Counted from the first letter of the stretch, positions 6,514 to 10,206 are shown. The stretch is 64,000 nucleotides of DNA from Dehalococcoidia bacterium (GCA_965262735.1 CBDHFS010000002.1:1143217-1207216), one strand, 5' to 3'. Notes: a model not told the origin generated them from the sequence alone. Program-made: numbers and translations.

Positions 6514-6614
6514 AAAGCTCTCCTTTAAGGCGTTTGGGACACCATAACAACAATCCCAGCCGGCCCGGAGTACCCATTTAACGTCCGGCCCGGTACTGCC
6601 GAAAGACTTCCTAA

Positions 6615-6652
6615 TTCAGGGGGTCTGGGGGATGAATCCCCCTACGTACCCC
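6615..6652 (+). repeat. Solo hairpin core repeat
   Basis: TTCAGGGGGTCTGGGGGATGAATCCCCCTACG. Confidence 0.8.
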
Positions 6653-6712
6653 ACCCGTTCTACCCGGGGCCCCTCAAAGGACTTCCCTTCTCAAAGCCAT
6701 CATAACCCCAGT

Positions 6713-6901: not shown

Positions 6902-6974
6902 CTCCTGTTCCGGCAGCGTGGTAACGTTACTAAACGCGCCTTGTTCGCCCCAAGACTCTCGCAAAATTCCCTTA

Positions 6975-7010
6975 TCCAGGGGGTTTGGGGGATTCATCCC
7001 CCACCATAAC
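6975..7010 (+). repeat. Solo hairpin core repeat (loop flipped to TTCA)
   Basis: TCCAGGGGGTTTGGGGGATTCATCCCCCACC. Confidence 0.8.
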
Positions 7011-7052
7011 CCACCCCATTCGTTCCGGGGATCTCCAAGTCCCAATAATTCC

Positions 7053-8057
7053 TTACTCGACGACCACTGCCTCATCCAGCAACACCCCTCCCTCGCTGTA
7101 TGCCCGGGAAATCGGGTCCCGCAGCAGCGCCGCCTGCACCAACTCCACCGGAACGGTTCTGGGCGTGCCGGGGACCGTCACCCGGCGCAGGACCCGCCGC
7201 GGGGCCACCACCCCTTCGGCAGCGTTATGTTGGGCCTGCCCGCGCTGTCCCGACGGCGGCAGGGCCATCTCAACCCGTATCCGTGAGTCCCCATCGGCGG
7301 CGCCGGGGAGCAGTCGGCTCAACGTCGTTGCCGTGGACGCCGCCCATCCGGCCTGGGAAAGCGGAAACGGCGGAGACACCCAACCCTGGGAACTGTGCCC
7401 CGCCAGCAAAATCCACCGGCTGGTGCGGGTAAGGTTCCCGCACTCAATGGACACCTTGGTCTCGCCCTCACTCTCCATGCCGCCGTCGGCGTTGAACTCC
7501 TTGGTGTCTAGCAGATATTGCCCGTGTACCGTCCCCGCAGGTATCGGCGGCAGCAGACCGGACAACTCCGGATCCCCGGTAACATTCGCGTCGGCAGCCG
7601 CCAACGCCGTTATCTCACCGGAGCTCCACTGCACCTCGTCTTCAACCTCAATGGAGCCTTTGGTCATCGCCTGTCCCACCGGGCAGAACCGCGCGGCCCG
7701 GTGCAGGCGCAGCCGCTCGTTTTCCGACAGGTTTCCTTTCAGCGTAACCAGCTCCCGCACACCAAAACCGGCCCCATAGGACCGCTCCACCGGCTCCACT
7801 TGGAAGTCAACCGCAATGTCCTCCAGGGGAATACCACCGCGGTAGGCCACGCCCACCAGCGTAACGACGGTTCAAGCGGCCCATGCGGCCACCGACAGGT
7901 AGGGCGGCGGTGGTCCCGCCATGTCTGCATCCTCGTTGACGATGCCCGTAACCATTGGCCACGGCCCCCGCTGTCCGGGGGCCGCGCCGATGACCGTCAT
8001 CACCGACTGCCCATCCAGAGCCGTTGCCACGATGTTCCGTTCCGGCAATTCAGCCAT
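7053..8057 (-). CDS. Tandem OsmC/Ohr-family protein with in-frame TGA at 7872-7874 (candidate selenocysteine; alternatively a pseudogene)
   Basis: ORFs 7872..8084 and 7053..7856 are in the same frame and separated only by one TGA. The context PPPYLSVAAWAA-TGA-TVVTLVGVA puts the TGA where OsmC carries its first conserved Cys. The second motif AARFCPVGQ is present. GGGGGA lies 5 nt upstream of the ATG at 8057. Confidence 0.55.
7841..7857 (-). promoter_or_regulatory. Candidate bacterial SECIS-like hairpin 14 nt downstream of the in-frame UGA
   Basis: The mRNA reads GGUGGG-CGUGG-CCUACC, a 6-bp stem including one G.U pair with a G-containing 5-nt apical loop. Folded by eye only. Confidence 0.3.
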
Positions 8058-8087
8058 CAATCCCCCGCTCAACCTGAGCTGCATTTA

Positions 8088-8121
8088 TCCCGGGGATTTG
8101 GGGGATAAATCCCCCAACGTA
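8088..8121 (+). repeat. Solo hairpin core repeat (loop TAAA)
   Basis: TCCCGGGGATTTGGGGGATAAATCCCCCAACGTA. Confidence 0.75.
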
Positions 8122-8156
8122 CCCCCCGGTTCATCCCGGGTCCCTCGAAAGACTGC

Positions 8157-8703: not shown

Positions 8704-8848
8704 GTAACAGTTCAGACTTGGTGAGATGAATTGGTTTCAGCCAACTGCCACTTTTTTCCAGGGGGTTTGGGGGATGAATCCCCCAACGTAACCCAACCCC
8801 CATATTCCGCCATCGGCCACGCCCATCCCCTCAACTCTGAACTGTTAC
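8704..8848 (+). mobile_element. MITE-like element (short subfamily, 145 bp)
   Basis: Inverted-repeat ends GTAACAGTTCAG../..CTGAACTGTTAC. GGGGAAC occurs on both flanks, offset by 1 nt. Confidence 0.85.
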
Positions 8849-8983
8849 GGGGGAACCACCCCCCACTGACTGCAACCGAATTTACCACACACCGCGCCCC
8901 TCGCTCAACAAGCCCTGTTTGGAAACCCTTCGTCCCCGGTCCCCAAGAGCGCAGGCTCTCAACTTCCGCAACACTCCCTCTAA

Positions 8984-9016
8984 TTCAGGGGGTTTGGGGG
9001 ATGCATCCCCCAACGG
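8984..9016 (+). repeat. Solo hairpin core repeat (loop TGCA)
   Basis: TTCAGGGGGTTTGGGGGATGCATCCCCCAACGG. Abuts the stop codon of the LLM gene. Confidence 0.8.
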
Positions 9017-9024
9017 ACCATCCC

Positions 9025-10206
9025 CTAGTCCGCCGGCTGCGCCATCCGCGCCCCCCGGAACGCCGGCATCACCTCCTGGGCAAAGCGGGTCATCTGCTCC
9101 CGGAACTGCTGCGCCGTCGCTCCCATCGGAAAGCCGATCATCACCTGCTCCAGCCCCGGGTACTTGTCCTCCAACTCCTTCAGGTACTCCACCGTATCCT
9201 CCGGCGTACCGGCCCACCAGGCCCGTTTCTGGATAACGTCCTGGAAGTCCACACCGGCGGCGATATGCCGCGCCGCCCCGCCGGGACCGGTGGCCTCCAT
9301 TTGCCGGTCGTTGTACCGCAGCATCCCCAGGGGAGCGGCAAACTTGACGTGCTCCTCAAACATCGGCTCCAACGCTTCCCGTGCCTTCTCCCTGCTGTCG
9401 TCCAGGTACGACCAGATGCCCAGGGCCAGGTTCTGCCCCAACTCCATGTCCTTTCCCTGCCGCGCGTTGGCCTGCTGGAACCGCCGGATCCATCCGTCCA
9501 CGTACTCCTCGCCGGTGCCCAGGATAACGCCCTTGACACCCCACTTGGCCATGAAGTCGAAGGCCCGGTCGGTGCCGCTGACCACTGGCTGCCATACCTC
9601 CACCGGCAGGTTCAGCGGCCGGGGAACCAGCGTCACCTCCTGCAACTCGTAGCCTCGGTAGGGCACGTTGGGCGGGATGGAGTAGTGGTTGCCCCGGTGG
9701 GTGAAAGCCTCCTGGTTGAAGGCTTTCATAATGATTTCAAACTGTTCCTCGAACAACTCCCGGTTGGCGTCGCCGTCCAGCAAGGGCGCGCCGAAGCTCT
9801 CCACCTCGCGGGTGTGGTACCCGCGGCCGACGCCGAAGACCACCCGCCCGCCGGTGAGAATGTCCACCATGGCGAAGTCCTCGGCCAGCCGGATGGGATG
9901 CCACATAGGCAGGACGTTGAACCCGCACCCGAACTTGATGCGCTTGGTGAACTGGGACAGGTACTGGCTCATAATCAGCAGGTTGGGGATGCACTCGTAC
10001 CCCTCCCGCTGGAAGTGATGCTCGGCCATCCAGAGGATGTCATACCCCAGGTCTTCCATGAGAATGGCGGCTTCTTTAGCGATGTCAAAGGCTTGAATCA
10101 GCCGCTCGTTGGGAAACCAGCGGTCATCGTGAGGCGTACCGGCGAACCCCACGCCCTCCCCCTCCAACACATGACCTGCATACAACGCCGAGAACGTTTT
10201 AATCAT
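9025..10206 (-). CDS. Luciferase-like (LLM class) flavin-dependent oxidoreductase
   Basis: LWMAEHHFQREGYE...GGRVVFGVGRGYH. Start moved to MIKTF (ATG at 10206, GGGGGA upstream), because the longer ORF runs into a MITE. Confidence 0.8.
   Translation of the reverse strand: MIKTFSALYAGHVLEGEGVGFAGTPHDDRWFPNERLIQAFDIAKEAAILMEDLGYDILWMAEHHFQREGYECIPNLLIMSQYLSQFTKRIKFGCGFNVLPMWHPIRLAEDFAMVDILTGGRVVFGVGRGYHTREVESFGAPLLDGDANRELFEEQFEIIMKAFNQEAFTHRGNHYSIPPNVPYRGYELQEVTLVPRPLNLPVEVWQPVVSGTDRAFDFMAKWGVKGVILGTGEEYVDGWIRRFQQANARQGKDMELGQNLALGIWSYLDDSREKAREALEPMFEEHVKFAAPLGMLRYNDRQMEATGPGGAARHIAAGVDFQDVIQKRAWWAGTPEDTVEYLKELEDKYPGLEQVMIGFPMGATAQQFREQMTRFAQEVMPAFRGARMAQPAD

Follow-up and report, generated by a model that had tools for sequence, protein, structure and literature searches.

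How should a UGA codon be understood when it stands at the very position of a protein fold at which a catalytic cysteine is expected? The question is raised by a minus-strand locus in a 64,000-nucleotide stretch of DNA from a Dehalococcoidia bacterium (GCA_965262735.1 CBDHFS010000002.1:1143217-1207216; the whole stretch is called the window below), which belongs to a 4.1-Mb genome in two contigs. There, two open reading frames (ORFs; 7872..8084 and 7053..7856) share a frame, with a TGA at 7874-7872 as the sole break between them, and an earlier interpretation of the DNA (the sequence-only reading) had proposed that together they encode a tandem OsmC/Ohr protein with selenocysteine (Sec) at the TGA. 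Here, we describe a computational analysis of this locus, which leads us to regard 7053-8057, with high confidence, as a genuine selenoprotein gene encoding one 334-residue chain in which the UGA of codon 62 is read as Sec. The actual insertion of Sec at residue 62 is something that we infer from comparisons of sequence, and the peroxidase activity, the substrate and the reductant are proposed by analogy with OsmC/Ohr enzymes.

One TGA in a conserved reading frame

The shared frame and the single TGA at 7872-7874 were both borne out by ORF and read-through analysis. Reading through from the ATG at 8057 gives a protein of 334 residues, the complete gene (7053..8057, minus strand) comprising 334 codons and a TAA stop at 7055-7053. 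The start codon is most likely this ATG (8057-8055), which agrees with the homologue N-termini M[ASV]EL...; an alternative upstream ATG at 8084 adjoins a repeat element that is described with the neighbouring genes. Around the predicted Sec (U), the protein reads ...PPPYLSVAAWAA-U-TVVTLVGVAYRGG... and, further on, ...RAARFCPVGQAM..., and the read-through product does contain the OsmC/Ohr domain claimed for it, the Pfam OsmC family (PF02566) covering residues 48-139 across the TGA with a score of 33.9 bits against a cut-off of 27.5.

Of the 120 top homologues in the protein database, 119 have a length of 247-273 residues and span no more than the C-terminal ~74-81% of the query, because gene callers start them just after the TGA. 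The annotation error is thus systematic, leaving these entries truncated at the N-terminus and devoid of the catalytic residue, and the enzyme is therefore missed by function prediction and by metaproteomic searches. The sole full-length entry (P0005) has W at the Sec column; its DNA has TGA, translated under a model in which TGA encodes W. NCBIfam holds no family for the 334-residue protein.

As a search of genome contigs with the single protein returned no relatives, six-frame searches that read through stops were used instead, across the 203 genomes of the taxonomic family. The gene is present in 64 of these, and all 62 intact full-length copies, drawn from 13 genera and 49-82% identical, contain exactly one in-frame TGA, with Cys in none. 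A further two-domain Sec copy (52% identity) was found outside the family, in a genome (G384) from another family of the class. DNA was extracted for 40 of these loci, and in 39 of them a motif search showed the TGA to occupy one and the same column, the count covering these 39 and the remaining locus (L052) being unmatched by the motif pattern. The column lies inside the best-conserved motif of the protein, YLxVAxWAA-U-TVVTxVGVAYRG. In the stretch before the TGA, the protein sequence is conserved and four-fold degenerate sites vary freely (1.5-1.9 bits), and this stretch is therefore translated; this combination of coding conservation with synonymous variation is found on both sides of the codon.

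These patterns bear directly on the two explanations that would deny the TGA any function. The first is an assembly or sequencing error at a true TGT, TGC or TGG codon, for which a single-base difference would suffice, but which is practically negligible given that the same TGA is found in four independent assemblies of a ~95% nucleotide-identical strain (long and short reads, four samples) and in more than 60 other genomes. The second, in which the TGA would be a premature stop and the OsmC-like gene would be decaying, could draw on the fact that gene callers split or truncate the gene everywhere and on the presence of fragmented copies in two of the 64 carriers. It is nevertheless exceedingly improbable, since decay does not account for one TGA in the same column of every intact copy at such levels of divergence, for purifying selection on both sides of it (the upstream 61 codons are not neutral), or for a gene free of further stops and frameshifts whose full-length structural model is confident.

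The two broken copies are rare pseudogenisation events in an otherwise intact family. One (G116:C1:1154660-1156502) lies in three pieces with a gap of ~840 bp and one TAG, and the other (G071:C5:2298227-2299203) in two pieces in different frames. The sequence-only reading had suggested that degraded copies in related strains would indicate a pseudogene; with breakage confined to these 2 of the 64 carriers, that explanation fails.

The immediate surroundings of the UGA are also constrained. The Ala codon just 5' of it (7875-7877) is GCU in 36 of 39 homologues, with an entropy of 0.46 bits (the mean for the gene is 1.54), and the base directly after the UGA is A in all homologues. These flanks may reflect a context effect on recoding or termination.

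The catalytic column and the two-domain architecture

Which residue, then, would the fold require at codon 62? The in-frame UGA (7872..7874, minus strand) is assigned to Sec62, at the peroxidatic position of the OsmC/Ohr fold, from the conserved TGA, from structure alignment and from forms of the protein that have cysteine (Cys) instead. In alignments with PDB sequences, U62 falls on the catalytic Cys of OsmC (9wo1), of Bacillus subtilis OhrB (2bjo) and of an OsmC-like protein (4mh4), and Cys125-Pro126 falls on the second Cys-Pro of the same three proteins; the helix context and the CP motif to which the sequence-only reading had pointed are thus those of the two redox Cys of the family. Cys125 (TGC, 7683..7685, minus strand), the presumed resolving Cys from the OsmC/Ohr structure alignment, sits in an invariant (F/Y)CPVGQ motif, and both U62 and Cys125 are invariant in alignment A3, as are R73 and R120.

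Distant homologues were sought with an exhaustive HMMER search of 1.8 billion representatives. Six two-domain homologues that are 31-42% identical (P0122, P0127, P0131, P0136, P0141 and P0149; alignment A2) have Cys at the column, and in the DNA of the first five the codon is TGT or TGC. The same alternation is seen in single-domain relatives from the same class, where Sec forms read LGA-U-TAMT or LAA-U-TVVT (L066, L067 and L068) and Cys forms LGA-C-TAMT (L069-L073 and L075). The question of whether homologues place Cys or Sec at the TGA therefore receives a consistent answer, namely Sec in all intact copies of the family and a true Cys codon in distant homologues.

Single-domain OsmC-like genes in which an in-frame TGA occupies the catalytic column are common in the class as a whole (L066-L068 and L042), with further matches in G335 (three in one genome), G372, G387, G418 and G419. 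They are probably truncated in annotations as well.

The position of U62 also speaks to the possibility that UGA is a true stop and that the locus makes two polypeptides, a 61-residue N-terminal fragment and a 267-residue protein re-initiated at the GTG at 7856. This GTG lies 15 nucleotides past the TGA, and the 267-residue product is the one annotated in most databases. Such a division would, however, cut through the catalytic helix (residues 51-73 in the structural model) and forfeit the catalytic residue, whereas the Cys forms are contiguous single chains; in addition, the GTG sits within the conserved hairpin discussed below, and no conserved ribosome-binding site was noticed at it, although none was searched for. 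We regard two separate products as highly improbable, and continue with a single chain.

That chain is built from two related parts. The N-terminal catalytic OsmC-like domain (residues ~1-148; 7614..8057, minus strand), which is delimited from PF02566, hhalign and Foldseek, contains Sec62 and Cys125-Pro126. It is followed by a variable linker (residues ~149-172; 7542..7613, minus strand), which has low conservation and a predicted local distance difference test (pLDDT) score of 68-82, and then by a degenerate C-terminal OsmC-like domain (residues ~173-334; 7056..7541, minus strand), recognized from hhalign and from the order of its secondary structure elements. Pfam found no match in the C-terminal half alone, and profile-profile comparison was needed. 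When the profiles of the two halves were compared with hhalign, they matched with 96% probability (expect value (E) 4.3e-9), U62 falling on the invariant Ser241 (7337-7335; WAA-S-T) and Cys125-Pro126 on Asp314-Pro315. Against a canonical profile of 42 single-domain OsmC-like proteins, the N-terminal half matched with 99.7% probability (E 3.9e-27) and the C-terminal half with 96% (E 4.2e-9), giving the same residue correspondences.

The shared profile and these correspondences therefore identify an internal duplication of the OsmC domain, and the second, Cys-less OsmC-like domain of the sequence-only reading is real: the C-terminal half is a duplicate in which both catalytic residues are gone, Ser241 having replaced Sec and Asp314 having replaced Cys. 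An AlphaFold2 (AF2) model of the full-length protein, made from a 36-sequence alignment, has a pLDDT of 91 and a predicted template modelling (pTM) score of 0.92, with the same order of strands and helices in both halves. In a Foldseek search of the PDB, all confident matches are OsmC/Ohr peroxidases (probability 1.0, template modelling (TM) score ~0.55-0.67, over ~140 columns). OsmC/Ohr enzymes are tightly intertwined homodimers with their active sites at the interface, and because of this the single chain is probably an intramolecular pseudo-dimer whose only active site is the one with Sec.

Decoding machinery and a SECIS-like hairpin

For UGA to be read as Sec, the host must be able to decode it. 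The genome contains a tRNA-Sec (66 bits; called as SeC with anticodon tca by ARAGORN) together with selA (563 bits), selB (347 bits) and selD (398 bits), the tRNA and the three proteins all scoring above curated cut-offs; the full set of selA, selB, selC and selD that the sequence-only reading had proposed to look for is thus present. The selD gene itself (G000:C1:560342-561265, L019) has one in-frame TGA, in the context SHCAG-U-AAKL. Across the taxonomic family, selA was found in 194 of 203 species genomes, and Sec use is therefore a lineage-wide trait; for the same reason, a test of co-occurrence between the present gene and selA was uninformative, selA being almost universal in the family.

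A global reassignment of TGA was considered and rejected, as TGA terminates 547 of 1480 long open frames genome-wide, and ARAGORN assigned a UCA anticodon only to tRNA-Sec among the 52 tRNAs of the whole genome. Within the window, the TGA at 1416-1418, cited earlier as an ordinary stop, does indeed close an ORF of 356 codons.

Bacterial Sec insertion also calls for a selenocysteine insertion sequence (SECIS) after the UGA. The hairpin described earlier as GGUGGG-CGUGG-CCUACC, starting 14 nucleotides after the UGA, is present; a better drawing of it has a stem of 8 bp and a GUG triloop (7840..7858, minus strand), with its 5' arm UGGUGGGC at 7858-7851, its loop at 7850-7848 and its 3' arm GCCUACCG at 7847-7840. 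Counting from the U of the UGA, positions 17-24 pair with 28-35, the stem beginning 13-14 nucleotides and the apical loop 21 nucleotides past the UGA, and the local free energy is -11.5 kcal/mol. In the bSECISearch model, the spacing between UGA and loop is reportedly roughly 16-37 nucleotides.

In the 39 two-domain Sec genes, 273 of 273 cells of the seven core pairs form standard pairs, as against 22-59% in shifted registers of the stem. Compensatory change is seen in two pairs, 19-33 being GC, GU or AU and 21-31 being AU, GU or GC, and the apical loop is GUN with GU invariant. Constraint on the nucleotides beyond that on the protein is apparent at synonymous sites: over 61 conserved four-fold degenerate codon columns the mean third-position entropy is 1.54 bits, and the only two columns with an entropy of zero, Gly+7 (GGC in 39/39) and Ala+9 (GCC in 39/39), both lie in the stem. 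At Val+6 the third base is only G or A, both of which pair with the opposite U.

The Cys forms provide a control. In the five two-domain Cys forms, only 4, 5, 5, 4 and 1 of the 7 homologous pairs are possible, these proteins retaining similar residues (G-V-A-H/Y/S/T) while their Gly and Ala codons vary. The stem is also kept among the single-domain Sec genes: in L066 and L068 it has changed further, pair 20-32 being U-A, U-G or C-G, and in L067 it has one mismatch. The SECIS that was to be looked for here accordingly exists as a SECIS-like hairpin conserved in 39 of 39 Sec forms and not maintained in five Cys forms; it is under selection and specific to Sec forms. The selD gene of the same genome likewise has an 8-bp stem and GUG triloop after its UGA, in an unrelated protein and with the loop starting 27 nucleotides after the UGA rather than 21.

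Of the rival explanations, the one that survives best is a read-through that does not involve Sec, in which the hairpin would help a near-cognate tRNA to decode UGA, the residue inserted being, for example, Trp or Cys. Structures 3' of a stop codon can promote read-through, and the identity of the inserted residue rests on inference. Even so, this is very unlikely: the Sec machinery is complete and, to judge from selA, near-universal in the lineage; the hairpin shares its 8-bp stem and GUG loop with selD, a classic selenoprotein; and the column is that of a redox Cys and is occupied by Cys in homologues, the standard signature of Sec/Cys pairs.

Several results weigh against decoding as Sec in a two-domain peroxidase, and they concern both the hairpin and the protein. 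Among two-domain genes, essentially a single clade (L025-L028) accounts for the compensatory changes, and the stem coincides with codons for strongly conserved residues (VGVAY); covariation by itself is therefore weak evidence, and the case for the hairpin rests on the synonymous-site test and on the Cys-form control. A scan of 7700-7950 against Rfam, with E up to 10, gave no match, and the 81 nucleotides after the UGA are no more stable than shuffled sequence (z = -0.17), only the local hairpin standing out. On the side of the protein, the AF2 model of the isolated C-terminal domain is poor (pLDDT 64.6), and the Foldseek matches of this lone domain, led by OsmC-like 2opl (probability 0.97-0.98), lend weak support, the model being poor. 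Such folding of the C-terminal half on its own would fit a domain that depends on its partner. Lastly, of the two catalytic partners that the peroxidatic residue has in Ohr, Arg18 and Glu50, the latter aligns with the variable P52 (P/Q/E/A/H/G among homologues), and the active site may therefore differ from that of canonical Ohr.

Proposed mechanism, relatives and significance

Taken as a selenoprotein, the gene would work as follows. The UGA of codon 62 would be recoded to Sec, with the hairpin 13-14 nucleotides downstream serving as a bacterial SECIS that recruits SelB with Sec-tRNA(Sec) to the ribosome. The N-terminal domain would keep the redox pair of the family, Sec62 replacing the peroxidatic Cys and Cys125 acting as the resolving residue. 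Sec62 would then reduce a hydroperoxide and be converted to a selenenic acid, which Cys125 would resolve to a selenenylsulfide, and a thiol or lipoyl-type reductant would regenerate the enzyme.

OsmC-like selenoproteins as such are already known, and the sequence-only reading was correct in recalling them from marine selenoproteome predictions. A family with three Sec sequences, assigned to COG1765 and showing the motif UxxT and a predicted SECIS, was reported from the Sargasso Sea by Zhang, Fomenko and Gladyshev in 2005 (PMC1088965); a 2008 analysis of the Global Ocean Sampling (GOS) data gave five Sec and 161 Cys members (PMC2398784); and the family is listed among prokaryotic selenoproteins in a 2026 review (PMC13188914). 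The present protein resembles the catalogued ones in belonging to PF02566/COG1765, in having Sec at the first redox position, in its origin from marine uncultivated bacteria, in its Cys homologues and in a SECIS directly downstream. It differs in being a 334-residue protein of two domains, the second of them catalytically dead, and in its exclusive use of Sec (62/62 intact copies, in contrast to 5 Sec and 161 Cys members in GOS). The catalogued motif, taken literally, has Thr at +3, whereas U-T-V-V-T here has Thr at +1 and +4, a comparison made with the motif and not with the published sequences.

Compared with the two-Cys Ohr/OsmC peroxidases (OhrB 2bjo, OhrA 6ecy, 4mh4 and 1vla), the fold is the same, with the peroxidatic residue in a long helix and the resolving Cys in a CP motif. 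In contrast to them, the protein has Sec in place of Cys, is a single-chain tandem with one active site instead of a homodimer with two, and does not conserve the catalytic Glu at the aligned position. The single-domain Sec and Cys relatives of the class share the motif LAA-U-TVVTL.GVA.RR and, in L066-L068, the SECIS hairpin with compensatory changes, but they are without the degenerate C-terminal domain; from their sequences they look like the unfused ancestral form. Searches of the literature returned no account of tandem or fused OsmC proteins, nor of SAR202 selenoproteins. The fusion of a live and a dead domain is apparently undescribed, in a comparison that leaves out the published examples AACY01145085 and MCS5647933.1. 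What appears to be new is the fused architecture, the all-Sec usage in the lineage and the near-universal truncation in databases, the tandem architecture being the less ordinary part of the finding.

The genes around the locus encode a glyoxalase/VOC-family protein, a flavin (Baeyer-Villiger type) monooxygenase and a luciferase-like monooxygenase, in an arrangement conserved only within the genus; synteny revealed no conserved operon partner beyond it. An intergenic repeat of ~46 nucleotides with a palindromic core, TTGGGGGAT(NN)ATCCCCCAA, occurs in five copies within 2.6 kb (6612-6657, 6972-7017, 8085-8130, 8754-8799 and 8981-9026). Copies lie on both sides of the selenoprotein gene, one ~35 nucleotides past its stop codon and one immediately ahead of the upstream ATG at 8084, and the repeat looks like a REP-like (repetitive extragenic palindromic) or terminator-like element. 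In a ~95% identical strain (L076:113-1201), a gene for a 362-residue luciferase-like monooxygenase lies between the glyoxalase and selenoprotein genes; the same place in the window (8058-8156) has only ~100 nucleotides with the repeat element, which amounts to a gene-sized indel beside the repeat.

What does the locus mean for these bacteria? Knowledge of Sec decoding itself is unchanged by it, although the hairpin, with its 8-bp stem and GUG triloop, is a clean lineage-specific example of a SECIS that no Rfam model matches. The finding adds a well-supported selenoprotein to abundant, mostly uncultivated ocean bacteria, and the fusion of a live and a dead OsmC domain offers a natural experiment on the way in which an obligate dimeric peroxidase can turn into one chain that has a single Sec active site. 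Beyond this, we consider the chances evenly balanced that the protein is a natural single-chain pseudo-heterodimer, in which a Sec domain is joined to a dead duplicate that completes a dimer-like scaffold, with Sec fixed across a SAR202-type family of Dehalococcoidia and Cys confined to distant lineages. If so, it would represent a distinct, undescribed selenoenzyme subfamily with a one-active-site architecture, which might be tuned to the removal of organic hydroperoxides in bacteria with an abundance of flavin monooxygenases.

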